Shown in pieces: positions 19,638-49,436 of a DNA stretch of 64,000 nt (positions are counted from its first letter, which is position 1; each line of letters starts with the position of its first letter). Made by a program: the position numbers and the translations under genes. The DNA comes from Candidatus Magasanikbacteria bacterium RIFCSPHIGHO2_02_FULL_48_18 (GTDB lineage Bacteria; Patescibacteriota; Patescibacteriia; Magasanikbacterales; UBA922): contig MFQC01000003.1 in NCBI GenBank assembly GCA_001784285.1, forward strand, positions 144,159-208,158. Reading direction: 5' to 3'. The notes below the pieces were generated by a model. That model did no database searches, was not told the DNA's origin, and worked only from the letters and a program-made list of their open reading frames with translations.

Positions 19638-20453
19638 TCATGGTTTTGATATAAAAGAAAAAATAAACCATTGGGTAAACGATGACTGAAAGAAAAAAAC
19701 AACGATCGTCCCCAAAACAAGAAATGGGGCAAAAGGAAGAGTGCCCTGAAGTGTTTTTCTTTTCAAGATAACCAAACACAAGGCACAAAGGCCTCCCACA
19801 ATGTACGAAAGCAAAAGAGCAAAAAGAATCCCCGGCCAGCCAAGAACAACCCCCATAAGAATTCCAAGCCCGATATCTCCACCCCCTACCCATTGACCAT
19901 GGGAAAAAAGATATTGCGCCAAAAACCATCCCCCGCCGACAAGAATGCCAAGGATGAGCGATTCCCACGGAAACCAACCGCGCCAAAGAGAAATACCAAA
20001 GAGCAAACCCGCGGGGACAAACGTGGACCAATAAAAAATTTCTCCATACCATGCGTCGTAAAGAGCAATAAAAAGAAGAAGTAGAAGGAGACAAAATTCA
20101 TACCAAACAATATCCCAACGATATGCAACAGGGAATAACAAACTAACCATAATGCCGACAAATGCAAATGCGACAAGGATTTCGACGATGGGATGAATTT
20201 CAGGGATGGGTGCCTGGCAGAAACGACACTTTCCACGTAAAAGAAAAAAACTGAAAATGGGGATGTTGTCTCTCCAGAGAATGGCTTTCCGGCATGTGCC
20301 GCACGAAGATCTCCCTATACACGGGCTCCTTTTTTCATGAAGACGCACCATGACCACAGCCAAAAAACTGCCAAATGCTCCCCCGACCCAAAATACAAGA
20401 AAAAAAAGAAAAAACCATGCCATACTGTTTCTGACAAACTCCATGAATACCAC
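19638..20453 (-). CDS. pilD: Prepilin peptidase (A24 family leader peptidase / N-methyltransferase).
   Basis: N-terminal CxxC...CxxC Zn motif (CGTCRK...CRFCQ). Polytopic. Conserved GGGD/GLGIL region of A24 peptidases. Confidence 0.75.
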   Translation of the reverse strand: MVFMEFVRNSMAWFFLFFLVFWVGGAFGSFLAVVMVRLHEKRSPCIGRSSCGTCRKAILWRDNIPIFSFFLLRGKCRFCQAPIPEIHPIVEILVAFAFVGIMVSLLFPVAYRWDIVWYEFCLLLLLLFIALYDAWYGEIFYWSTFVPAGLLFGISLWRGWFPWESLILGILVGGGWFLAQYLFSHGQWVGGGDIGLGILMGVVLGWPGILFALLLSYIVGGLCALCLVILKRKTLQGTLPFAPFLVLGTIVVFFFQSSFTQWFIFSFISKP

Positions 20454-21440: not shown

Positions 21441-22604
21441 TCACAGCAAAATATTTCTCAATGCCAGACCGATGCTCACCGACATCCGCGGGCCGATGAT
21501 ATTTAAAATCGGTTTCAGGCTCTGCTGGCAGACAATTCTCGCCCATGGGTCGCCCACAAACACTTTCATGGGAAAGTGATCGCGTATTTGGTTGGCAATA
21601 ACCGGAAAAACGGCCGCGCCGCCGGTAAGGATAATTTTTTCCGGACGCTTTTCTTTATTCCACGTCTGATGGAGAAACACATCAAATCCATATTCAATTT
21701 CTTTGACGATGGAATCAACCATATCGGTATAGAGCAAAGGATCAAAGGCGGCAGGCGGCAGGCGGCCGATGTCTTTCTTTATTTGGTCAATATACGCAGA
21801 ATCAACATGCAAACGTTCGATAAATAACGCGTCAAGCGAACTGCCCCCTATCTGGATGCTACGGTGTGTTAAGGGAAGTCCATTATCAATAATAAAAAAA
21901 TTCGTTCTCTCCGCGCCAATATCCACCACCATGACTGTTGCGGGGTCCTGCCCCACCAGAGAACGTTCCAATGCAAACGCTTCGGTTTCCAAATCTTGCA
22001 AATGCAGACCGGCGCGTTGGAAGATGGCGGTATAAAATGCGACGAGCTCTTTGGGAGCCGCGGTGACCAGCACGTGCATATATTTTTCTTGGTCTCCGCT
22101 CAAAGACTGTTTGATTTTTTGAAAGGCAATTTGCATTTCTTCAACCGGACGAGAAAGAAATTTTTTTACCTCCGAATGAACAATCGCGGGGAGTTCTTTT
22201 TCCGGAACGAGTGGAAACGTAAAGACGGTATGAAAAATATGAGAAACCGGAAGGCTGGCGGTGGCGACACGGCTTTGAACCCGCGATTTTTTGAGCGCCG
22301 CTGACAAGAGCGAACTGAAATAGGTCACTTCTTTTTTATTTTCTGGAGTGAGCCACTCGTGTGTTTCCGGTTTCTTTTTTTTCTGTTTTGAAAGACTGTC
22401 TCCAAAAGCATCCGCCCCGTTCGTTTCCTGGTGCGCGGAGACGCGAGCGGAAAATGGCTCCACGTGGATATTGAGCGGCTGGTCCACAATGGCATACGTC
22501 CACAGCTGGGGACGGCCTTTCTGTTTTTTTAATTCAACCAATTTTATGCCGTGTGCTCCAATGTCAACACCCAGATATGAATCATTTTTTTTGAATAAAG
22601 ACAT
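21441..22604 (-). CDS. pilM: Type IV pilus assembly protein PilM (actin-like ATPase). The start was chosen at the internal Met; the long ORF extends to 22682.
   Basis: N-terminus SYLGVDIGAHGIKLVELKK and C-terminal ...SIGLALR are typical of PilM. Confidence 0.75.
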   Translation of the reverse strand: MSLFKKNDSYLGVDIGAHGIKLVELKKQKGRPQLWTYAIVDQPLNIHVEPFSARVSAHQETNGADAFGDSLSKQKKKKPETHEWLTPENKKEVTYFSSLLSAALKKSRVQSRVATASLPVSHIFHTVFTFPLVPEKELPAIVHSEVKKFLSRPVEEMQIAFQKIKQSLSGDQEKYMHVLVTAAPKELVAFYTAIFQRAGLHLQDLETEAFALERSLVGQDPATVMVVDIGAERTNFFIIDNGLPLTHRSIQIGGSSLDALFIERLHVDSAYIDQIKKDIGRLPPAAFDPLLYTDMVDSIVKEIEYGFDVFLHQTWNKEKRPEKIILTGGAAVFPVIANQIRDHFPMKVFVGDPWARIVCQQSLKPILNIIGPRMSVSIGLALRNILL

Positions 22605-22750
22605 ACGCCGCAACTGACATTTCAAAACAAATTTTGAGTTGGTGAGAGTATACCATAAAAAGAAGCAAAAGAAAAAAATCAAACCTTTACACCGGCCCGT
22701 GCAGAGACTATACTACACCACTATACCCCCTGATTTTTCTTCTGTTTTGT

Positions 22751-27389: not shown

Positions 27390-27992
27390 TTGTATGGTAT
27401 GGATGAGCAACTTAAAAAACAACCTTTTGATTCTCAGGAAGAAACGCCCCTCGAAAAATCCCCCAACCCAGAACAGGCGCCAAGGCACGGCGACAGGGCG
27501 GCGTCTCCAGAATTTTCTCCTGTGCCAGAACAGCCGGTGACTCCGCCGCGTTTCGAACAGGGAGAAAAAGCAGGAGAATTAACCAAAGAATCCGCAGAAA
27601 TGGAAACGCGAGAAGAGGGATTTCTTGATGACGCGATTCAGGGACTGAAACAAAAATTACTGAAAAAAAAGCCAAAACCAGTCATTCGACCCCAACACAA
27701 AGACGATCTCACCATCCAAATTGAACATATCATGGAAGAAGGATTGGAAGATGCATATAAAGAACTCACCCCGGTCCAGCGGCAAGAATTTAAAATGAAA
27801 GGAGAAGAAACCGCCACAAAAATCCGTCAGCTTCTTCGGGCCACTCACATCAAGGTGCAAAAAATCTTCCAGCTTCTCTTGCAATGGCTCAAGATGCTTC
27901 CGGGTATTAGCCGATATTTTCTCGAGCAAGAAGCAAAAATAAAACTTGATAAGATGCTTTCGTTCCATGAATATAAAAAACCGAAACAGTAA
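27390..27992 (+). CDS. Hypothetical protein with an acidic, Pro-rich, probably disordered N-terminal half and a helical C-terminal half. It sits immediately upstream of the T4CP-like ATPase.
   Basis: 200-aa ORF. Low-complexity PEQ-rich N-terminus. No known motif. Confidence 0.4.
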   Translation: MYGMDEQLKKQPFDSQEETPLEKSPNPEQAPRHGDRAASPEFSPVPEQPVTPPRFEQGEKAGELTKESAEMETREEGFLDDAIQGLKQKLLKKKPKPVIRPQHKDDLTIQIEHIMEEGLEDAYKELTPVQRQEFKMKGEETATKIRQLLRATHIKVQKIFQLLLQWLKMLPGISRYFLEQEAKIKLDKMLSFHEYKKPKQ

Positions 27993-28024: not shown

Positions 28025-30544
28025 ATGTTGGATAATTCCTTCTTTTTTGGCGCAATTGTCATTGTTTTAATCAGTGCCATGGTTGTAAGCACCATTTTTT
28101 TATTTCGCGCCTCCACCCGTTTCTTTTCTCGGTCTTCCAAAGCATTCCATCGGACGGTGCTTCTTATTTCTGTGCCAAAAGAACGAAAATCGGAAGGCCA
28201 AGGCAACACGCAAGGAATGCAGGACGATCGCCTGGAATATGTCAAAGAGGAAATCGGCATTACCGAAACATTCTTTTCTGCGATTGGCGGACTCAAAGCC
28301 CAGCGAGGAATAAAAAAATGGTTTCAGGGGAGAGACGACCATTTTTCGTATGAAATCGTTGCCCATGATGGTCTAATTTATTTTTACATTGACACGCCAA
28401 AAAAAATGCGACAGCTCATTGAACAGCAAATCCACGCGCAATACCCATACGCCCAAATTGACGAAATGATTGATTATAACATTTTTTCAGAAAAAAGTTC
28501 GATTGTCGGGGCGTATTTGGTCGCAGTCAAAAAATCATTTTTTCCATTCAAAACATATAAAAAAATGGAGTCCGACCCGCTGTCCGCCATATTGAATGTC
28601 TTGGCGCGCATTCGCGAAGGCAACAGCTCTGCCGCGGTTCAATGCATTGTGCGGAGCGCAAACAAAAAATGGCGCCGCAGGGGCATCCGCGTCGTGCGAG
28701 AAGTAAAAAAAGGAAAAAAATTTGAAAACATCGCAAATCAATCAACTTTCTCTCAGGTATTCCATGCGGCATGGAAAGGCATAGCAGACACCGCAAAAAA
28801 ACCGGAAGAAAGAAAAAGAGATGAGGCATACACGCTCTCTGCCATGGAAGAAGACATGCTGAAAGGCATTGAGGAAAAACTCAGCAAAGCCGGCCTTGAT
28901 ATGGTTATTCGAATCGTCAGCATTTCAGACGAAGAGCAGACCGCAAAAATGAATTTGGATAATCTGCTCAGTGCGTTCAGCCAATACAATCTGTACCGAT
29001 ATGGCAACACATTCAATGCCATGGTACCGAGGCGCCAAACCACGCTGATCCAAGATTTTATTTATCGCAGTTTCACCGAAAACAAGTCATTCGTCGTCAA
29101 TACCGAAGAAATGGCTTCCTTCTGGCACCTGCCGCTCCATTCCACAGAAGCCCCAAATATCAAATGGCTGACCGGGCGAAAAGCGCCGCCGCCGCCCAAC
29201 CTCCCCAAGGAAGGACTCCTCTTGGGATGTATCAACTACCGAGGAACAAAAACGGACGTGCGGCTGAAATTGAACGATCGGCGGCGGCATCTGTATATTA
29301 TTGGAAAATCCGGAAGCGGCAAATCCGTGACCATTGCCAACCTCGCCATTCAAGACATCCACGCCGGACATGGCGTTTGTATCGTGGATCCGCACGGCGA
29401 TCTCGTGGAAGAAACATTGCGCCATATTCCAAAACATCGCGCTGATGACGTTATTGTGTTCAACCCCTCAGACATGGAGCGCCCGATTGGACTGAATATG
29501 CTTGAAGCCAGAAATGAAGACGAGAAGGATTTTGCGGTGCAAGAAATGATTTCAATTTTTTATAAATTGTTTCCCCCGGAAATGATCGGGCCGATGTTTG
29601 AGCACAACATGCGCAACGTGATGCTGACCCTCATGTCCGATATTCATGACCCCGGAACCGTCATTGATATTCCCCGGATGTTTACCGACGATCAGTATGT
29701 AAAAGTCTATCTCAAAAAATTAAAAGACCCGATCGTGCGCGCGTTTTGGGAAAAGGAAATGGCGCAGACCAGCGATTTTCACAAATCGGAAATGCTCGGT
29801 TATCTCATTTCAAAAGTGGGACGATTTGTCGAAAATGAAATGATGCGAAACATCATGGGGCAACAGCGGTCAGGATTCAACTTTCGCGACATCATGGACA
29901 CGCAAAAAATTCTCCTTGTCAATCTGGCCAAAGGAAGGGTGGGAGAAATGAACGCAAAACTCTTAGGACTGATTGTGGTTGCAAAATTGCAAATGGCGGC
30001 CATGGGCCGGGCAGAGCTCTTGGAAGAAGAACGAAAAGATTTTTTTCTGTATATTGATGAGTTCCAAAATTTCATTACCGATTCTATTTCCATTATCCTC
30101 TCCGAGGCCAGAAAGTATAAATTGGATTTGATTATCGCGCATCAATATATGGGCCAGTTGACGGATGACAAAGGCAAAGCAACGGTTCGCGATTCGGTAT
30201 TGGGAAACGTGGGAACCATGATGATCGGGCGAATCGGTCCGGAAGACGCTGATATACTGGCCAAAGAATTTGCGCCAACGTTCGGCTCGTATGATCTCCT
30301 CAATACCCCGCAATATTCCTTTTATACAAAAATGCTGATAGACAATGAAGCATCCAGGCCGTTTCTTATGGGCGCATACCCCCCCAAACAAGGAAACCAA
30401 CCCCTGGCAAACGCTATCAAACAATTGTCCCGTCTCAAATATGGGCGGGATCGCACCATTGTGGAAGCGGAAATTTTGGAGCGAACCAAACTCGGGTCCG
30501 CCTCAAGCGCAAGCAAAACCGATATGATTGAAGCATCGCTGTAG
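28025..30544 (+). CDS. Membrane-anchored P-loop ATPase of the FtsK/HerA/VirD4-TraD (T4SS coupling-protein-like, DUF87-like) superfamily, carrying a ~370-aa N-terminal domain of unknown function.
   Basis: N-terminal TM. Walker A YIIGKSGSGKS followed by VCIVDPHGDL (the DPxGD/E motif typical of TraD/TrwB/FtsK-type ATPases). Walker B FFLYIDEFQNF. 839 aa. Confidence 0.7.
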   Translation: MLDNSFFFGAIVIVLISAMVVSTIFLFRASTRFFSRSSKAFHRTVLLISVPKERKSEGQGNTQGMQDDRLEYVKEEIGITETFFSAIGGLKAQRGIKKWFQGRDDHFSYEIVAHDGLIYFYIDTPKKMRQLIEQQIHAQYPYAQIDEMIDYNIFSEKSSIVGAYLVAVKKSFFPFKTYKKMESDPLSAILNVLARIREGNSSAAVQCIVRSANKKWRRRGIRVVREVKKGKKFENIANQSTFSQVFHAAWKGIADTAKKPEERKRDEAYTLSAMEEDMLKGIEEKLSKAGLDMVIRIVSISDEEQTAKMNLDNLLSAFSQYNLYRYGNTFNAMVPRRQTTLIQDFIYRSFTENKSFVVNTEEMASFWHLPLHSTEAPNIKWLTGRKAPPPPNLPKEGLLLGCINYRGTKTDVRLKLNDRRRHLYIIGKSGSGKSVTIANLAIQDIHAGHGVCIVDPHGDLVEETLRHIPKHRADDVIVFNPSDMERPIGLNMLEARNEDEKDFAVQEMISIFYKLFPPEMIGPMFEHNMRNVMLTLMSDIHDPGTVIDIPRMFTDDQYVKVYLKKLKDPIVRAFWEKEMAQTSDFHKSEMLGYLISKVGRFVENEMMRNIMGQQRSGFNFRDIMDTQKILLVNLAKGRVGEMNAKLLGLIVVAKLQMAAMGRAELLEEERKDFFLYIDEFQNFITDSISIILSEARKYKLDLIIAHQYMGQLTDDKGKATVRDSVLGNVGTMMIGRIGPEDADILAKEFAPTFGSYDLLNTPQYSFYTKMLIDNEASRPFLMGAYPPKQGNQPLANAIKQLSRLKYGRDRTIVEAEILERTKLGSASSASKTDMIEASL

Positions 30545-30665: not shown

Positions 30666-31346
30666 ATGGATCAACTTGCAAATATTTTATCCGAAAAAAT
30701 AACGGAATTTGATATACCCGACCGATTCGTTCTCAGCCCTGTCAAAAACCCCCAAATCACCGCGTATCCACCCCGCAATGAATCATTGCCCGCAGGTGAA
30801 CTCCCATCACAAAAAATTCCTGAGACACCAGAATCACACCATATTCATCAGCTCAAAAAAACCATTGACGCGCTCAAGACAGAGCTCGATGCTTTGTTGC
30901 ATATTTTTCAGCATGAATTCCACGTTCCTCTTTCGCGAAACAATCTTGGTCCGGTCCCTCTTGCCGCTCCAGGGACGGTTCTTGAGGGGGTGTTCAACGG
31001 GTACCAGATGATTGCCGCAAACGGCGCATGCTACCCCATCCCCCCAAACTACGCCAGCAAATCAAAATTGGTCGAAGGCGACCTCATGAAGCTGACCATC
31101 ACGAGAAATGGAGGGCTCATGTACAAACAAATTCAACCCATTGAACGCACGCGAATCAGCGGCATTTTGACAAAAGATTCATCCACAAACGACTGGATGG
31201 TCGGGGCCGAACAAAAAATATACCGCGTCCTCACCGCTTCAGTCACATTTTACAAAGGACAAACGGGCGACACAGCCGGTATTTTGGTTCCTCTTGATGG
31301 ACAAAGTGATTGGGCGGCAGTCGACTATATTGTCCATAGCGAATAG
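30666..31346 (+). CDS. Hypothetical 226-aa protein.
   Basis: ORF in an operon-like position after the ATPase. No recognisable motif. Confidence 0.4.
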   Translation: MDQLANILSEKITEFDIPDRFVLSPVKNPQITAYPPRNESLPAGELPSQKIPETPESHHIHQLKKTIDALKTELDALLHIFQHEFHVPLSRNNLGPVPLAAPGTVLEGVFNGYQMIAANGACYPIPPNYASKSKLVEGDLMKLTITRNGGLMYKQIQPIERTRISGILTKDSSTNDWMVGAEQKIYRVLTASVTFYKGQTGDTAGILVPLDGQSDWAAVDYIVHSE

Positions 31347-33014: not shown

Positions 33015-33272
33015 TTAGCTCATGTGCGCCGAAACCAATTTGGTCATTTCAAACATGGTGACTTCTTTTTTCCCCCCAAAAAGAGGAAGAAGTTTTTCAT
33101 CAGCGAGAATGTTTCGTTTGTTGCTTGGATTTTGAAGATCGTTCGTCTTGATATAATCCCACAACTTTTTTACCACCTGGCCACGGGGCAGTGGACCTGG
33201 TCCAACAACGGCCTCAAGCTCTGCTGAGAGCGTCAAGGGCTTCAGCAACGCTGGGTTCGCTTTTCTTGGCAT
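33015..33272 (-). CDS. Stand-alone SWIB/MDM2-domain protein.
   Basis: LKPLTLSAELEAVVGPGPLPRGQVVKKLWDYIKTNDLQNPSNKRNILADEKLLPLFG matches the SWIB domain consensus. Confidence 0.7.
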   Translation of the reverse strand: MPRKANPALLKPLTLSAELEAVVGPGPLPRGQVVKKLWDYIKTNDLQNPSNKRNILADEKLLPLFGGKKEVTMFEMTKLVSAHMS

Positions 33273-33424
33273 AAGAGACAAGATTAAAAATGATTTTTGA
33301 TACACGCAATAAGTTATCCACAGTATAGCAGACAAGAGACAAAAAGGCAAGAAGCCAGAAAGGGCACTCTTTACGCAATCCCCTTTTGTCCGTTATACTA
33401 GAGGCCAATTCATTTTCCTCTTCT

Positions 33425-37131: not shown

Positions 37132-38601
37132 TCATCCCAAGTTGGCATCATCAACATACCGCACATCGCCCGAATCGGTCACATATTTTTTCTTCCCTTT
37201 CTCGTCCGGCGTGTTCGGGGATTCGCTTTCCGGCATGGCCGGTTGTGGCGGGGCAGATGTTCCCGGCACTACTGAAGATATATCCAAAGGCAATCCCGCC
37301 GGCGGCTCGACATGCTTGCCCTCTGCTTTTTGGAGAAGCGGTGTTTTGACATGGGACATTGGAAAATGCCAAATAGTTGCAAGTTCTTCAATGTTCAAGA
37401 CAAACGGTTCCTTTCCCCTTTCAATCGCCCGCTCCTGGTACGCATGCATCAAGACAGAGCGGCGATAATTTTTTCGCGCTTCCGCAAACATATACTCGAC
37501 CGACGTCATATATTTTGGCAGAAGCATATTGCAATAGGGCACATTGAATTGATTGAGCGCCCCTGTGATTGAATTGATCGCCTTATTTGGTTTGTAGGCC
37601 TCTTTTTTTGCCACATAAATCATTCGAATTTTTGTTCGAAATCCAATTTTGCTGATCTTGTCTTCCATTGCTTCAACAATTTTTCTCTCTCCCGGCGTGA
37701 GATAGAGAATTTGATTTTTTGGTTCATGCGAATCTTTTGACGCACCGGCATCTTCTCCCGGCCCGGCGCCTCCGCTCAGCTGGGCGTTGATTTCAGCGAA
37801 GCCTTTGCTGATTTCTCTTGTGAGAGTATTATCAAATATCCAAGTTAAAAAACTCTTTCCTGATTCTTTTTTTTCTCCAACCATTTCCTTAATTTTTTCT
37901 ATAGCCTCATCTTTCCAAAGTTTTTCCGCGATCGGCGCAATAATAATCTGAAACCAGACTTGTTCCCCAGGCCCGATACGCGTAAAACTTTCGAGGAGCG
38001 TCCCCATTGGATCCTTCAACACCGTATCTTTGGAAATGCTATGTTCAAAATCGCGGTAGAGCCGCAATGGAAATGCCCAGTGCTTTGTTAAAACATAATC
38101 CGCGGCCCAAATATCGTGCGTATCGTTTGGATATTTGGTTGGAATTCCGGAGACATAATCTTCAACCTCGATAATCTCCGCTTCAGGATATTGGGCGTAC
38201 ACGGCCGCCTCAAGCACATCGCGATATTTTACCCGGACACGAACTAAAAATTGAATGTAGCCTTCAATGCTAATGATTTCAAAGCTATAGAATTCTTCAT
38301 TATACCCCCTTCGAAACATGGTCGTAATGCTCGGCGGCTCCCAAATGCTGAAAATATGCGAAAATAGCTGTTCCACCGCTTTTGGCGTCTGGATATTCAA
38401 GGCAGGAATATCAATCGCCAAAAGGACCCATTCCCAGGTGGAGGTATATTTTTCTCGTTTGTATATTTTTTCAATTTCCAATCCCGCATAAATCAGCAGA
38501 TATGCAACAACCGTCCATCCCCCCAGCATAAGCAAATCCAAAATAACCCGATACAAGGGCTGTAAAAACAGGTTGGATAAAAAAAGGATGGCCGCATCCA
38601 T
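37132..38601 (-). CDS. Membrane protein paralogous to the N-terminal ~370-aa domain of the 28025-30544 ATPase, but with no ATPase domain. It has a low-complexity C-terminal tail.
   Basis: Alignable blocks: QYPEAEIIEVEDY vs QYPYAQIDEMIDY; LTPGERKIVEAMEDKISKIGFRTKIRMIYV vs LSAMEEDMLKGIEEKLSKAGLDMVIRIVSI; EELATIWHFPMSHVKTP...PPAGLP vs EEMASFWHLPLHSTEAP...PPPNLP. Confidence 0.6.
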   Translation of the reverse strand: MDAAILFLSNLFLQPLYRVILDLLMLGGWTVVAYLLIYAGLEIEKIYKREKYTSTWEWVLLAIDIPALNIQTPKAVEQLFSHIFSIWEPPSITTMFRRGYNEEFYSFEIISIEGYIQFLVRVRVKYRDVLEAAVYAQYPEAEIIEVEDYVSGIPTKYPNDTHDIWAADYVLTKHWAFPLRLYRDFEHSISKDTVLKDPMGTLLESFTRIGPGEQVWFQIIIAPIAEKLWKDEAIEKIKEMVGEKKESGKSFLTWIFDNTLTREISKGFAEINAQLSGGAGPGEDAGASKDSHEPKNQILYLTPGERKIVEAMEDKISKIGFRTKIRMIYVAKKEAYKPNKAINSITGALNQFNVPYCNMLLPKYMTSVEYMFAEARKNYRRSVLMHAYQERAIERGKEPFVLNIEELATIWHFPMSHVKTPLLQKAEGKHVEPPAGLPLDISSVVPGTSAPPQPAMPESESPNTPDEKGKKKYVTDSGDVRYVDDANLG

Positions 38602-38603
38602 AC

Positions 38604-38840
38604 CTACACCTCAAGTAACACGTAGATAATGATATAGATAATGATGACGGAAAATCCGGTCCACCACCATCCGCTTCCGGCAGATGCATACCCGACCCAA
38701 TAAGCAAGAAAGGTCACGAGCATGCCGAGAAAAGAAATAAAGTGCCGAACAAATTTTTCATTCATAGAGAGGATCCTTAAGAACTCCGAAAACCAGTATA
38801 TCATGGAACAAAAAAACCCGGAATAGCCGGGTTTTTGCAT
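38604..38840 (-). CDS. Small (53-78 aa) two-TM membrane protein, translationally coupled to the downstream paralog gene.
   Basis: Hydrophobic ...FLGMLVTFLAYWVGYASAGSGWWWTGFSVIIIYIIIYVLL. Its stop overlaps the start of the 37132-38601 gene and it lies 8 nt after the secF stop. Confidence 0.4.
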   Translation of the reverse strand: MQKPGYSGFFCSMIYWFSEFLRILSMNEKFVRHFISFLGMLVTFLAYWVGYASAGSGWWWTGFSVIIIYIIIYVLLEV

Positions 38841-38848
38841 GAATCATA

Positions 38849-39919
38849 TTATATGCTCGGCTGTTTGCGTTTCCGACGGCGTTCTTCTTCCCAGGATACC
38901 AAAATCGGACTGGCAATAAAGATGGAAGAATACGTTCCAAAAAAAATACCAATAATCAACGCAAGCGAAAAATAACGAATGGATTCGCCGCCAAAAAAAT
39001 ACATTGCAACAAGCACCAAGAGCGTGGTAAACGATGTATTGATCGAACGCAGGATGGTTTGGTTCACTCCGCGATTGACCACATCAAGAAAATTACTGCC
39101 GCCGCTTTTTATAAGGTTCTCTCGCACGCGGTCAAACACCACAATCGTGTCATTGACAGAATATCCAAGAATGGTCAACAGTGCAACGATAAAGGGGATA
39201 TCCACCTCAACGCCATACCATTTGCCCAAAAGGGCAAACACACCCATGGTGATAAGCACATCATGCGCGAGCGCAATAACGGCCGCGACGCCGTATTTCC
39301 ATGATTCGACCGGTTTGGATACCCGACGAAATGAATAGGCAATAAACAGCACAATAAGGAGCAGAACGCCAATGCCCGCTTTCCAAGATCGAGAAATCAA
39401 TTCCTGGCTGATCGATGGCCCAATCGTCTCCACCCGCTCCTCGAGCACGCGCTCTACAGGAGCCGTTTGCGCGGTTTCATCCTGTCCTTCTTGAGATACT
39501 GCGCCTTCTTCTCCCGAGAGGGATTCTGCCTCGACAAGAACAGGCTCGCCGTTTTCTCCGGTTGCCTCGAGCAAGAATGACCCGTTCTCAGCATCCTGCG
39601 CGGCCGCTGTTTCAAATGAACTCCGCAACCGAGCCAGAATTTGCTGATGTTCTTCTTCATTGATAAAGCGAGTTCGAAGAATATATCCATCTTCATTGGT
39701 GGGTTGGACCACGACTGACCCAAGACTCAAGTCGGCAAGAGCGGTCTCTACCTTGTCAGGAGACGGCCTTTGTCCGGTAAAACGAACTTCCAGCAATGAC
39801 CCGCCGGTAAAATCAATCCCGGGTTTGAGTCCAAACAGAACAAGAGACACAATACTCCCTAAAACGAGCAGGCCAGATATCATGAAAGAAACATTTCTTT
39901 TTTGAATGATAGAAATCAT
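38849..39919 (-). CDS. secF: Protein-export membrane protein SecF. The start was chosen at the ATG that overlaps the secD stop by 4 nt (ATGA).
   Basis: ISGLLVLGSIVSLVLFGLKPGIDFTGGSLLEVRF... and C-terminal SecD/F TM bundle ...NDTIVVFDRVREN.... Confidence 0.85.
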   Translation of the reverse strand: MISIIQKRNVSFMISGLLVLGSIVSLVLFGLKPGIDFTGGSLLEVRFTGQRPSPDKVETALADLSLGSVVVQPTNEDGYILRTRFINEEEHQQILARLRSSFETAAAQDAENGSFLLEATGENGEPVLVEAESLSGEEGAVSQEGQDETAQTAPVERVLEERVETIGPSISQELISRSWKAGIGVLLLIVLFIAYSFRRVSKPVESWKYGVAAVIALAHDVLITMGVFALLGKWYGVEVDIPFIVALLTILGYSVNDTIVVFDRVRENLIKSGGSNFLDVVNRGVNQTILRSINTSFTTLLVLVAMYFFGGESIRYFSLALIIGIFFGTYSSIFIASPILVSWEEERRRKRKQPSI

Positions 39920-42006
39920 ATGTCTTTGTTCTTTGCTCCGAGAAAAAACCATGTGCCCGCGCGAAACCATGGCGCCACAAAACGCAACATCACGCGGGTG
40001 ACGGTAATTGCGGAAAACATGCTCGTGAGAATGCCAATAAAGAGCGTAATGGCAAACCCTTGAACAAATCCGGAGCCAAACCACATCAAAACAAGACACG
40101 TGATAAGCGTTGAAAGATTTCCATCCCGAATGGACGGCCATGCTCGCAAAAACCCTTCTTCAATAGCCGCCTTGAGACTTTTTCCATCTTGGAGTTCTTC
40201 TTTGAGCCGTTCAAAAATCAAAACATTTGCGTCAACCGCCATGCCAATTGATAGAATAAAGCCGCCAATGCCGGCCAAGGTCAGCGTGACCCCCACAAAT
40301 TTAAAGAGCGCCAAGGTAAAAAATACATACACGCACAGTGCAATAACAGACAACAATCCCGGAAATCGATAATAGAGCACCATAAACAGCATCACCAAAA
40401 GAACGCCAATAATTCCTGCCATAAGACTCTTTTGGAGCGATTCAGCGCCAAGGGTCGCCCCAACCGATTGTTGCGAAATGAGCTCTACCGGCACGGGCAA
40501 GGCGCCCGCATTCAGCCGCTGAGAGAGCACACGCGCGTCTTCCAGGGTAAAATTACCGGTGATCACGGCCTGGCCGCTCGTGATGGATTGTTGCACCCGA
40601 GGAATGCTGATGGGTTCCCCATCGAGAAAAATCGCCACCGGCTTTCCCACATTTCTTTTTGTGATGTCTGCAAAGAGTGTTGTTCCCTCCTCGTCAAATT
40701 GGAGCGATACTTGAATTTGTCCGGTTTGCTGGTCGGAAACAATTTCCGCTCGATCCAATTGTTTGCCCGATAATCCTGTGTTCATCCAAGGATCGGGCGG
40801 CGGAAGAATGTTTTCCGGGGCAAGAGTCCGAATCAAAATGCGGGACAACTCATATTCTTTGGTTGGGGCCTCATTTGTTTTATAAATAATATGATACCCA
40901 AATTCGGTCAAAATGGGTCCTATAATTTCTCCGACTTTTGCCTGAAACGCGGCATCCTCAAACGCCGGCGTAAAAAGTCCTTTTCCAAAAACGCCAAGCG
41001 CGCCCCCAGTCTCTTCAGCGCCGGGTTCTGTGGAAAATTCTTTTGCCAAATCTGAAAAATTATCCGCGTTTGCCTGTTCAAACAGTTCTTTCGCTTTTTG
41101 TTCGGCTTCTTCTTTGGTGTATTTGGGATCGGCGCATTTTTCAGCGCCGAGAAAACAAATCAAAACATGACTGGCCTCCACTTTTGTTTCTCCATCACGC
41201 GTTTTTCCCAGCCTGACGATATTGTATCCTTCGGGTGATTCCACCACTGTCTTAGGAATCTCGCCTTCTTGCAATTTGGCGAGAACCTCGACAATACCTT
41301 CGTACTGCGGAGTATCCCCGATAAATCCCACATATCCATTGTTGTTTTTTGATTGCTGATCTTCGGAAGATTCCTTGGCAAGCGCGTCAAATGATTCACC
41401 GGATTGTATTTTGAACAAAAGATCGGACGCGCGTTTTTTGGCGTCGCTGTTATATTCGATAATTTGCTGTTGTTCTTCTCCGGTCAATTCACGCGGAGGT
41501 ACTGTGTTTTCTTCTTTAAATTCCAAAATAGGCGTTTCTCCAATCATGGCAATCGCGGCCTGTACATCGGTAACCCCCGGCAGTTCCACCACCAAGCGAT
41601 GCTCGTCGCCAACTTTGGTGGTTTGAACATTAGATTCGCCAATGCCAAATGCATTCACGCGGCGTTCAATAACATCACGAACGCCTTCCAGCGCGTCTCC
41701 GCGGTCCTCATCGGCAAATTGATTGACATCCGCTTTGTAAATGAGATGCGCTCCCCCTTGAAGATCTAGCCCCAAAGAAAATGGCTTTCCTGAAATCGAC
41801 GGAATGGCAAGGGGTAACATACGATTAGCCGCTTGAATTTGTGTATTCACGAATTCCGGAAAATCAAAAGAAAACGCGACGCCGAGCAACGCAAAAATGC
41901 CAAGAATTCCCCATCGAATTTTCGTCCGTACGTGTGATTGTCCGCTGTGCTTGGTCATACCGATGAATAACGGCAGTAGTGTAGCGTTTTGGGTCAATCG
42001 CGTCAA
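39916..42006 (-). CDS. secD: Protein-export membrane protein SecD carrying a ~210-aa insertion with two tandem parvulin (PpiC-type) PPIase-like domains.
   Basis: SecD motifs LGLDLQGGAHLIY..., ...GALPVPVELI... and the C-terminal TM bundle ...VDANVLIFERLKEE.... Inserted parvulin 2 ASHVLICF...GGALGVFGKGLFTPAFEDAAF...FGYHIIYK. Parvulin 1 lacks the His pair (IIEY / GYNIVRL). Confidence 0.85.
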   Translation of the reverse strand: MTRLTQNATLLPLFIGMTKHSGQSHVRTKIRWGILGIFALLGVAFSFDFPEFVNTQIQAANRMLPLAIPSISGKPFSLGLDLQGGAHLIYKADVNQFADEDRGDALEGVRDVIERRVNAFGIGESNVQTTKVGDEHRLVVELPGVTDVQAAIAMIGETPILEFKEENTVPPRELTGEEQQQIIEYNSDAKKRASDLLFKIQSGESFDALAKESSEDQQSKNNNGYVGFIGDTPQYEGIVEVLAKLQEGEIPKTVVESPEGYNIVRLGKTRDGETKVEASHVLICFLGAEKCADPKYTKEEAEQKAKELFEQANADNFSDLAKEFSTEPGAEETGGALGVFGKGLFTPAFEDAAFQAKVGEIIGPILTEFGYHIIYKTNEAPTKEYELSRILIRTLAPENILPPPDPWMNTGLSGKQLDRAEIVSDQQTGQIQVSLQFDEEGTTLFADITKRNVGKPVAIFLDGEPISIPRVQQSITSGQAVITGNFTLEDARVLSQRLNAGALPVPVELISQQSVGATLGAESLQKSLMAGIIGVLLVMLFMVLYYRFPGLLSVIALCVYVFFTLALFKFVGVTLTLAGIGGFILSIGMAVDANVLIFERLKEELQDGKSLKAAIEEGFLRAWPSIRDGNLSTLITCLVLMWFGSGFVQGFAITLFIGILTSMFSAITVTRVMLRFVAPWFRAGTWFFLGAKNKDI

Positions 42007-48040: not shown

Positions 48041-48148
48041 AGCACTTTCGCGTTTGATTGCCTTCGAGCGGGTTCTGTCTCCGCAACGGAGACAGCCCTG
48101 AGCCGATACAGGCGAAGAAAGCGAGAAGGCTATCAACGCGAAAGTGCT
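48041..48148 (+). promoter_or_regulatory. Structured ~110-nt leader or MITE-like element bounded by a perfect 14-bp inverted repeat, immediately upstream of the RBS of the GC-rich gene.
   Basis: agcactttcgcgtt (48041-48054) and aacgcgaaagtgct (48135-48148) are perfectly complementary. Internal 9-bp hairpin ctgtctccg-caa-cggagacag (48075-48095). GGAGG RBS at 48154-48158. Confidence 0.4.
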
Positions 48149-48164
48149 ACAGAGGAGGAAAAAA

Positions 48165-49436
48165 ATGTGGAAAAATTTTGCGGCTCTCGAAGATCATCGC
48201 GCCCACGCGGACTCGCCGCTAGGCCACATCCCGATCCCTGGTCGGGAGTGGTACGGTATGCGCGGTCTCATGACCAATGCCCCCCTCATGATCGCGCCCG
48301 GCGGCATTGAGTGGGAACTCATCGAGGCCCTTCGAGGCCGGGGAATCGGCCCCCGCGAGGTCGTCGAGGTGGATGACCTAGTCCTCGACTGCGCGCGGGG
48401 CCCTGTCGCTGACAAAATCCGCCGCTGTGACGGAATCCGGCCGTTCTGGTTCGGCCGGACCGAAGAGGAGCTCTTCAATGAGCTCGGCATGCCGGCCGCG
48501 ATCACAGCCAACCAGATGAGGGATCTCAACTGCAAGGCGATCTTTCGGATGATCGCGAAGCAACAGGGCTTCGGTCATCTGGTACCCCTGAATGGGGTCG
48601 GTACGACCGAGGCACACGCGCTTGAGACGTTCGAGCGCATCCGGGCCATGCTCGGCCACGACGGCCACCCGATTCCCGACGCGGCCATCCTCAAACAAAC
48701 TGGACTCCTGTCCGGCGCCGGGATGGAGGTCCACACAACGACGGATGGTGTCAAGGGCTACTGCCGGCGCCAGCTCGACGGCAAGCCCATGATCATCGAG
48801 GCGGCCTACCTGCGGCACATGGCCGCCTCGGCACACTGGAATCTGTCCGCCAGTGGCTGGAGCAGGGCAGGCACAACAGTCAACTTCATCTCCGGCGGGG
48901 TATGCCACGAGGGCAACCTGTACGCCTCGCATGCACAGCCAATCCCCGGACTCTTGCTCAAGGACATGGCCACCATGTACTGGATCGGGGAGCACTGGAT
49001 TCGGGAATGGTGGAAGATGGGTTTCCGTGAGATGGCCGTGGGTATTGACTTCATCAAGGTCCGCGGCTTGTGCGGCAGGGTTCGGTGGTACGCCATTGAA
49101 CCGAACATCTTCCGCCCGCCGGCGCCACGGTACGGATTCGCGCTCGGCGAGCAGATCGCACCACGGCTCGGTGGACGCTGGGCCATTGCCCAGTCGAACG
49201 TCTACCCGGCTCCGGGAGCCGCGGACAACTTCCGCGAACTGGCGCGGCTCCTCAGGGGGCTCCTGTTCGACGGCAAGAGCGGCGCCGTCCCCACGCTCGT
49301 CGAGCTCTTGCCCCATGGCAAGTTCCAGGCGTTCTGTGTCGCCGAGAACGGCTGGAAGGCAATGCGGCTCCTCACTCGGGTCAAGGAGCGCGTCGGGGAC
49401 ACAAAGTCGGTCGCGATCCCTGATCTCGACCGCTAG
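48165..49436 (+). CDS. Compositionally foreign (GC-rich) gene encoding a ~424-aa protein with ATP-grasp-like C-terminal motifs. Function unknown.
   Basis: Strong G/C third-position codon bias, unlike every other gene in the window. GGAGG-6nt-ATG start. Motifs GTTVNFISGG and AVGIDFIKVRGLCGRVRWYAIEPNIFRPP resemble the ATP-grasp R-x-N...GG and GxD...E-x-N motifs. The antisense 373-aa ORF is a GC-rich shadow. Confidence 0.6.
   Translation: MWKNFAALEDHRAHADSPLGHIPIPGREWYGMRGLMTNAPLMIAPGGIEWELIEALRGRGIGPREVVEVDDLVLDCARGPVADKIRRCDGIRPFWFGRTEEELFNELGMPAAITANQMRDLNCKAIFRMIAKQQGFGHLVPLNGVGTTEAHALETFERIRAMLGHDGHPIPDAAILKQTGLLSGAGMEVHTTTDGVKGYCRRQLDGKPMIIEAAYLRHMAASAHWNLSASGWSRAGTTVNFISGGVCHEGNLYASHAQPIPGLLLKDMATMYWIGEHWIREWWKMGFREMAVGIDFIKVRGLCGRVRWYAIEPNIFRPPAPRYGFALGEQIAPRLGGRWAIAQSNVYPAPGAADNFRELARLLRGLLFDGKSGAVPTLVELLPHGKFQAFCVAENGWKAMRLLTRVKERVGDTKSVAIPDLDR

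Follow-up and report, generated by a model that had tools for sequence, protein, structure and literature searches.

A membrane-anchored coupling protein-type ATPase with a predicted VirB4-like N-terminal domain is a conserved chromosomal gene in Patescibacteria

A 64,000-nucleotide stretch of contig MFQC01000003.1 from Candidatus Magasanikbacteria bacterium RIFCSPHIGHO2_02_FULL_48_18 (the window; coordinates count from its first nucleotide) was analyzed with the gene at 28025-30544 on the plus strand as its subject. This open reading frame (ORF) encodes 839 residues, with the same coordinates as in the first-pass annotation, an earlier reading of the DNA. The 839-residue protein joins an N-terminal domain, modeled as VirB4-type, to a motor that scores by sequence as a type IV coupling protein (T4CP). 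With moderate confidence we read it as an ATPase from the type IV secretion lineage that is anchored in the membrane, a hybrid of a VirD4/TrwB motor and a VirB4-type N-terminal domain that is encoded by a vertically inherited chromosomal core gene and is probably coupled to a type IV secretion system (T4SS).

Results

Domain architecture of the 839-residue ATPase

The protein contains exactly one hydrophobic segment, residues 8-26 (28046..28102, plus strand; hydropathy 2.67). No lysine or arginine precedes the segment and four follow just after it, so the N-terminus is predicted to lie outside (N-out/C-in) and the remainder, including the region ahead of the ATPase, in the cytoplasm. AlphaFold2 models this lone transmembrane (TM) helix within a long helix spanning residues 5-41. 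The DUF8128 domain follows at residues ~43-395 (28151..29209, plus strand). It is predicted to have an alpha/beta fold like that of the VirB4 N-terminal domain and ends in the motif EExAxxWHxP and a PPPxxLP linker. A single TM helix followed by a long soluble domain ahead of the ATPase had been proposed in the first-pass annotation, and this layout is borne out by the one hydrophobic segment and the ~350-residue cytoplasmic domain, which canonical T4CPs do not have.

The motor is a P-loop ATPase of the FtsK/HerA superfamily and of the T4CP type (residues ~398-790; 29216..30394, plus strand). Three Pfam families scored above their curated cut-offs on the C-terminal half: TrwB_AAD_bind over residues 413-759 (44.2 bits, cut-off 20.5), DUF87/HerA central domain (39.3 bits, cut-off 23.2) and TraG-D_C (26.6 bits, cut-off 22). 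The catalytic motifs are Walker A, GKSGSGKS (residues 427-434; 29303-29326), DPHGD (residues 455-459) and Walker B, LYIDE (residues 675-679; 30047-30061), all on the plus strand. These families and motifs agree with the earlier placement of the C-terminal half among membrane-anchored ATPases of the VirD4/TraD/FtsK-HerA superfamily. NCBIfam matches of the same half, to TraD, the VirD4-like CD1115 family, CedD and HerA, were all below threshold, and its sequence matches in the PDB include TrwB, HerA and DotL.

The full-length structural model had a predicted local distance difference test score (pLDDT) of 79.8. Superposition of its ATPase gave values of 23.6 for TrwB, 22.6 for the VirB4 C-terminal domain (4ag5), 22.4 for HerA, 21.8 for DptH, 21.5 for DotL, 21.1 for Cag-beta, 16.9 for TcpA and 16.4 for FtsK; several solved ATPases fit the modeled motor half about equally well. 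Residues ~498-625, inside the ATPase between Walker A and Walker B, form an insertion in which only helices are modeled, as in coupling proteins, at a moderate pLDDT of ~48-70. Walker A was retained in 281 of the 281 full-length homologues retrieved and Walker B in 278, a degree of retention indicating that the DUF8128-ATPases are very probably active enzymes.

The N-terminal domain is DUF8128 and has a predicted VirB4-like fold

The N-terminal domain had been described in the first-pass annotation as of unknown fold, a description that did not hold, and it is a catalogued domain. A 100% identical protein from a Candidatus Magasanikbacteria metagenome-assembled genome is listed with PF26449.1, DUF8128, and the same family is annotated on 120 of 120 orthologues and on 119 of 120 members of the paralogue family described below. 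These assignments are precomputed database annotations; the Pfam copy scanned here contained no PF26449 model, and neither that copy nor the NCBIfam copy scanned gave a match to the N-terminal half. A HMMER search with residues 1-400 retrieved 1,977 cluster representatives (clustered at 50% identity) with E ≤ 1e-3, including 1,043 with E ≤ 1e-10, which makes DUF8128 a family of ~2,000 representative clusters. The matched proteins are mostly 800-1,270 residues long and carry the ATPase; the longer ones merely add disordered C-terminal tails. A literature search by the names DUF8128 and PF26449 found no paper.

An AlphaFold2 model of residues 1-405, based on 88 orthologues and paralogues, had a mean pLDDT of 89.4 and a predicted template modeling score (pTM) of 0.86. 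When this model was searched with Foldseek, ranks 1-12 were all chains of TrwK, the VirB4 of R388, with probabilities of 0.99-1.00; one of them is 8rtd_h, a chain of 457 residues. The tool prints no aligned ranges, and we infer that the match falls on the non-ATPase N-terminal domain of VirB4 because the query has no P-loop domain and the match list has no other P-loop ATPase. On this modeling, DUF8128 folds like the N-terminal domain of VirB4, an outcome that the first-pass annotation had named as counting against its own interpretation. The TrwK entries matched here, which we take to be the R388 structures of Macé et al. 2022, reportedly have the VirB4 N-terminal domain binding the tails of VirB3 and VirB8 and mediating VirB4-VirB4 pairing at the membrane.

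Sequence searches for the VirB4 link were all negative. An hhalign comparison of the family profile with one Bacillus VirB4 aligned the P-loop alone, with a probability of 2%. Pfam searches of 47 N-terminal domains at E ≤ 10 returned no VirB4 model and only scattered chance matches, and the N-terminal domain profile did not retrieve TrwK from the PDB sequences. The sole VirB4-type match in NCBIfam to the 839-residue protein was VirB4_plasma, which scored 18.6 bits (E 3e-4) where the cut-off is 590. The link is therefore a structural one. Within the family, 21 columns are invariant across the 839-residue proteins and the paralogues, including the terminal EExAxxWHxP and the proline-rich linker, and E110, Q206, E362, P370 and P394 are still invariant in an alignment that includes distant plasmid and phage members.

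Conserved neighbors and conservation in Patescibacteria

Gene neighbors were counted by tblastn, using the window's own neighbors as queries against 80 related species-level genomes, so that the counts describe these queries at loci that are not fully annotated. A homologue of acid200 (27399..27992, plus strand) lies immediately upstream of the ATPase gene at 80 of 80 loci. acid200 has an acidic, low-complexity N-terminal half and a conserved helical C-terminal module, EFKxKGEETA...WLKxLPGVNRFFLEQEAKIKTDKI, in which F134, G138, W166, P171 and K183-I184-K185 are invariant in the alignment. The mechanically called ORF, 27390-27992 on the plus strand, opens at TTG 27390. Conservation of Met4 in at least 90% of orthologues makes ATG 27399 the most likely start, so the acidic gene reported earlier is present with a shorter predicted N-terminus. 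Searches of Pfam, NCBIfam, PHROG and PADLOC found no match to acid200, and its profile retrieved nothing credible from the PDB sequences.

The gene downstream, unk226 (30666..31346, plus strand), encodes a variable N-terminal half and a conserved beta-rich C-terminal region of ~125 residues, EGVFDG...VPPNYASKSKLVEGD...YKVLTASVTY...WAAVENI, with 22 invariant columns. It occupies this position at 47 of 80 ABY1-type loci. No family in Pfam, NCBIfam, PHROGs or PADLOC matched unk226, and its profile found nothing credible among the PDB sequences. DnaX lies downstream of the ATPase gene at 66 of 80 loci, and cysteinyl-tRNA synthetase (CysRS) and PilM lie upstream at 59 and 15 of 80, respectively, giving a conserved order of acid200-ATPase-(unk226)-DnaX. 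The first-pass annotation had placed the ATPase in a block with the acidic protein, the 226-residue protein and a GT-C-like membrane protein. The acidic protein belongs to the block throughout and the 226-residue protein often does; the GT-C-like protein was found at 0 of 80 loci and was rejected as part of the system. In a scan of 26.3-33.5 kb, promoters and terminators were as numerous as expected from shuffled sequence, and the scan was uninformative on operon structure. The conserved neighbors at the 80 loci are not standard conjugative T4SS genes, and the Patescibacteria loci so screened show no linkage of the ATPase gene to relaxase or T4SS genes or to VirB3-, VirB6- or VirB8-type genes.

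The ATPase gene was found in at least 576 GTDB species, counted with one genome per species, including Magasanik-, Uhr-, Komeili-, Kuenen- and Buchananbacteria. Mean identities to the window proteins, calculated over the 42 genomes that have all of the compared genes, were 62.6% for the ATPase half, 46.5% for the DUF8128 half, 49.9% for CysRS and 37.9% for DnaX. Around the gene, GC content does not differ from the background. Because synteny and sequence identity are both conserved, the ATPase gene is a vertically inherited chromosomal core gene under strong constraint.

An ATPase-less paralogue lies in a Sec operon

The first-pass annotation had noted that the N-terminal domain recurs in a protein without an ATPase at 37132..38601 on the minus strand, and this was confirmed by BLASTP, which aligned residues 80-394 of the 839-residue protein with residues 76-438 of the 489-residue paralogue at 25% identity (E=1e-26). 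The paralogue has a TM region at residues ~19-41. Its family comprises 1,905 matches with PF26449 as the only annotated domain; Walker A is absent from 116 of 118 members and the WHxP motif is kept in 118 of 118. The order SecA-SecD-SecF-53aa-DUF8128-Dus was found in the three Magasanikbacteria-type genomes examined (the window; L081/L082; L083, partly L084). The 53-residue protein of this operon (38604..38765, minus strand) has two TM segments and a conserved GWWW motif and is encoded between SecF and the paralogue. Its stop codon lies 2 nt from the start codon of the paralogue, and it has an equivalent position in L081, L083 and L084. A role as a small membrane partner resembling VirB3 is a speculative possibility. 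SecD of the same operon (39916-42006, minus strand) contains an inserted PpiC-type peptidyl-prolyl isomerase domain at residues 261-377, and the SecD-rotamase fusion also occurs in two other Magasanikbacteria-type genomes.

A second clade, made up of Berkelbacteria and others, comprised 7,716 matches. The three Berkelbacteria-type genomes each encode two DUF8128-ATPases a few kb apart. The first, of ~840 residues, is the orthologue of the window protein (43-44% identity), and at two of the three loci a unk226 orthologue of 47-49% identity lies directly downstream of it. The second, of 1,030-1,140 residues, adjoins SecD/SecF in convergent orientation. With E-values of ~1e-40 against this second, sec-adjacent paralogue and of 1e-25 to 1e-31 against the first, the 489-residue protein of the window is nearer to the second. 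Judging from six genomes, the Magasanikbacteria paralogue probably derives from this second ATPase, having lost the motor domain and stayed at an ancestral sec position.

The Berkelbacteria-type clusters also contain giant unannotated proteins (880 to ~1,200 residues), a DUF5663 protein (two of three loci) and an acidic disordered protein, and these accompany the ~840-residue DUF8128-ATPase, the unk226 orthologue (two of three), a sigma70_r4/HARE-HTH protein and the 1,030-1,140-residue DUF8128-ATPase. SecDF is convergent to the cluster (L089 1-17423, L090 1-17087, L091 1-17105).

The same architecture occurs on plasmids and phages

The first-pass annotation had rightly associated the protein with bacteria of the candidate phyla radiation (CPR); the two-domain architecture is not limited to them. 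The tblastn search matched 261 plasmid records and 37 phage records, with best E-values of 2e-37 and 1e-49, respectively. At least 80% of the query, including the N-terminal domain, was covered in 22 plasmid and 9 phage matches at ~18-25% identity. A 27.5-kb Bacillus subtilis plasmid encodes an 885-residue homologue, followed directly by a Replic_Relax gene, TcpC and an AAA_10 VirB4, and this homologue sits where a Gram-positive conjugation operon carries its coupling protein. On the Halorussus limi plasmid NZ_CP096663, the N-terminal domain (376 residues) and the ATPase (1,007 residues) are encoded by separate, overlapping adjacent ORFs (L087 8866-13009), and the pair adjoins a second TraM-recognition ATPase (1,092 residues) and a pilin gene. 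Bacillus phage G gp156, also a homologue, is encoded beside the VirB4-like gp155, and phrog_5156 matches residues 103-821 of the 839-residue protein at E=1.5e-86. Outside Patescibacteria, this same architecture is used in conjugation-type gene clusters.

Other features of the window

The window is an ordinary stretch of housekeeping chromosome. It encodes a class II aminoacyl-tRNA synthetase, proline biosynthesis genes, an AddA-like helicase, Acs, GatA, LigA, prepilin peptidase, PilM, CysRS, CTP synthase, L9, Era, DnaX, FolD, Dus, SecA, SecD, SecF, MurB, UvrABC, MurJ and LepA. The type IV prepilin peptidase (19638-20453, minus strand) and PilM (21441-22682, minus strand) are encoded 6-8 kb upstream of the ATPase gene; their linkage to it is weak and may be inherited synteny. 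A SWIB/MDM2-domain protein (33015-33350, minus strand; E 7e-29) is encoded between the ATPase block and DnaX and is kept there at 12 of 80 loci. Within the 48-50 kb segment, between UvrC and UvrA, GC content rises to 57% in an island, compared with ~46% elsewhere. Neither tandem repeats nor a match in Pfam, NCBIfam, PADLOC or Rfam was found for the 430-residue ORF in this island (48144-49436, plus strand), which was possibly acquired horizontally.

Discussion

The 839-residue protein shares the overall plan of VirB4 (TrwK of R388; PDB 7O42, 7O43, 8RTD), in which a non-ATPase N-terminal domain of ~350-400 residues precedes an FtsK/HerA-type ATPase, and a predicted N-terminal domain of this type is present. 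It differs from VirB4 in having no sequence match to CagE_TrbE_VirB, AAA_10 or the NCBIfam VirB4/TraC models, in an ATPase that scores as a T4CP (TrwB_AAD_bind, TraG-D_C), and in a TM helix of its own, fused to the chain, whereas VirB4 relies on a separate VirB3. Unlike VirB4, the Patescibacteria protein is not encoded next to VirB3, VirB6 or VirB8. The likeness to T4CPs (VirD4/TrwB/TraD) extends over the nucleotide-binding domain of TrwB type with its Walker A and B motifs, the TraG-D_C region, the helical insertion modeled between the Walker motifs and the N-terminal membrane anchor, and the Bacillus plasmid homologue sits in the T4CP slot beside a relaxase-like gene. Canonical T4CPs, however, have two TM helices that lead almost straight into the ATPase, whereas this protein has one TM helix and a VirB4-like domain of ~350 residues, and its gene in Patescibacteria belongs to the chromosomal core, with no relaxase or T4SS nearby. 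Of the features of HerA and FtsK/SpoIIIE DNA translocases, neither the N-terminal barrel of HerA nor the Pfam FtsK_SpoIIIE model was matched, and the protein has neither the multi-TM N-terminal domain nor the gamma domain of FtsK/SpoIIIE. The resemblance to EccE of the mycobacterial ESX (type VII) system is much weaker and partial; the sequences are not similar, and the resemblance does not establish homology.

That Patescibacteria almost universally carry "orphan" homologues of T4CPs has already been published. The available portions of Quinonero-Coronel et al. 2025 (PMC12102498) describe a survey of 3,035 Patescibacteria genomes with VirB4 in 2,417 and with 5,713 VirD4-type T4CP homologues in 2,918 (96%, about two each), only 148 of them near virB4, and its authors write that the orphans may be exapted, which they do not exclude. 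The two DUF8128 paralogues fit the count of about two per genome, with the proviso that the VirD4-type class of that study need not be DUF8128. Those portions describe neither the N-terminal domain with its VirB4-like fold nor the conserved partners and the ATPase-less paralogue. They also report that TrsD (pGO1) stands alone as a protein, is remotely related to the N-terminal portion of VirB4 and is abundant in Patescibacteria. The ATPase-less DUF8128 paralogue, too, stands alone and has a predicted VirB4 N-terminal-domain fold, but TrsD homologues lie mostly beside virB4, and the DUF8128-only paralogue lies beside SecA/SecDF. What remains of interest is the hybrid VirB4/VirD4 design, a near-housekeeping level of conservation away from T4SS genes, the conserved partners and the ATPase-less sibling in a Sec operon.

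Several observations weigh against a T4SS-coupled hybrid ATPase. No T4SS, relaxase or channel gene was found within ±8 kb at the 80 related loci, screened with the window's neighbors, and a Pfam scan of window ORFs of at least 150 residues found no VirB4, VirB6, VirB8, relaxase or integrase, in keeping with the first-pass observation that T4SS components are not visible there. The Foldseek TM-scores to TrwK are modest, 0.31-0.39; neither single N-terminal domain sequences nor a 47-sequence profile matched a VirB4 N-terminal domain model or a TrwK sequence, and the modeled VirB4 relationship is visible only at the level of the fold. In the available portions of PMC12102498, T4CP homologues are present in more genomes than VirB4 (2,918 and 2,417), and the Southlakia T4CP homologue is non-essential where other T4SS genes are essential. 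This excess and this non-essentiality argue against an obligatory T4SS role.

The same observations bear on a T4SS-independent, stand-alone membrane DNA translocase acting alone or with type IV pilus/competence proteins, a less likely alternative. It would possibly take up foreign DNA to obtain nucleotides, or handle the chromosome or other DNA at the membrane. The first-pass annotation had likewise suggested a stand-alone module for membrane translocation or DNA handling, which may be the case. T4SS genes are absent from 80 of 80 loci, DnaX is the frequent downstream neighbor, the ATPase half is more conserved than CysRS, and T4CP homologues are found in 96% of Patescibacteria genomes versus 80% for VirB4 (PMC12102498, available portions). 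In NCBIfam, the C-terminal half also weakly matches CedD, an archaeal ATPase that translocates DNA (E 5.8e-9, far below the cut-off), and PilM and prepilin peptidase are encoded upstream in the window. However, the DnaX/CysRS synteny may be plain vertical inheritance within class ABY1, and Berkelbacteria-type neighbors differ; acid200 and unk226 showed no DNA-binding domain in profile searches. A Saccharibacterium without ComEC is viable although competence is lost (PMC12857230), so ComEC-dependent uptake is not essential there. Annotation of ftsK at least in TM7x (PMC10768705) leaves no evident need for an FtsK substitute and weakens that role.

The position of DUF8128 proteins beside SecA/SecDF raises another alternative, a Sec-linked motor for protein export or envelope assembly that would unfold or hand over particular proteins bound for secretion or the cell surface, for example pilins, adhesins or effectors. 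We consider it improbable. It draws on the operon of the ATPase-less paralogue in three genomes, on the second DUF8128-ATPase that adjoins SecDF near giant unannotated proteins in three Berkelbacteria-type genomes, and on T4CPs of effector-translocating T4SSs, which move proteins (PMC12857230). Yet the gene for the 839-residue protein is not beside sec genes at any of the 80 loci, SecDF is convergent rather than co-oriented in the Berkelbacteria-type loci, the linkage was examined in only six genomes, and adjacency to sec could be inherited synteny without functional meaning. An integrated conjugative element, a prophage remnant or cargo, with an ordinary mobile-element coupling protein, would agree with the nearest non-CPR relatives being on plasmids and phages and with the phrog_5156 match. 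That origin is effectively refuted by synteny, conservation and composition: the flanking housekeeping genes are shared in 80 species-level genomes, purifying selection is stronger than on CysRS, and GC is equal to the surroundings. The flanks are never T4SS or relaxase genes, with acid200 always upstream and usually unk226 or DnaX downstream, and no integrase, relaxase or other T4SS gene was detected among the window ORFs scanned. A broader conjecture is that the two DUF8128 paralogues form a Patescibacteria-wide, T4SS-independent, minimal VirB4/VirD4-hybrid motor that moves host-derived DNA or proteins across a single membrane. One paralogue would be ATPase-less and wired to SecA-SecDF, acid200, unk226 and the 53-residue GWWW protein would be its other parts, and the whole would be as indispensable as aminoacyl-tRNA synthetases and a surviving intermediate between VirB4 and coupling proteins. 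We regard this conjecture as doubtful.

In VirB4, the N-terminal domain serves as a platform through which the ATPase docks with small membrane partners (tails of VirB3 and VirB8) and with another copy of VirB4. In the favored T4SS-coupled reading, the fused TM helix would tether a corresponding DUF8128 platform to the inner face of the membrane. The protein would probably form hexamers, placing an ATPase ring at the membrane where ATP hydrolysis could drive a polymer, either DNA or unfolded protein, toward or through a membrane channel. The likeliest channel would be a Patescibacteria T4SS encoded elsewhere in the genome. The DUF8128 platform may recruit membrane and adaptor partners, for which acid200, unk226 and the ATPase-less paralogue with its 53-residue companion are candidates. 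The paralogue could pair with the 839-residue protein in the manner of TrsD or of outer VirB4 subunits.

A large part of bacterial diversity falls within Patescibacteria, which are apparently host-dependent, and the transport of macromolecules across their envelope is poorly understood. T4CP-type ATPases are present in ~96% of their genomes, almost never beside a T4SS, according to the available portions of PMC12102498. The present analysis points to a large family with a predicted VirB4-type docking domain, constraint above that on a tRNA synthetase and fixed small partners, which leads to testable hypotheses on partners and complexes. Its hybrid architecture bears on the relationship of the two signature T4SS ATPases, VirB4 and VirD4.

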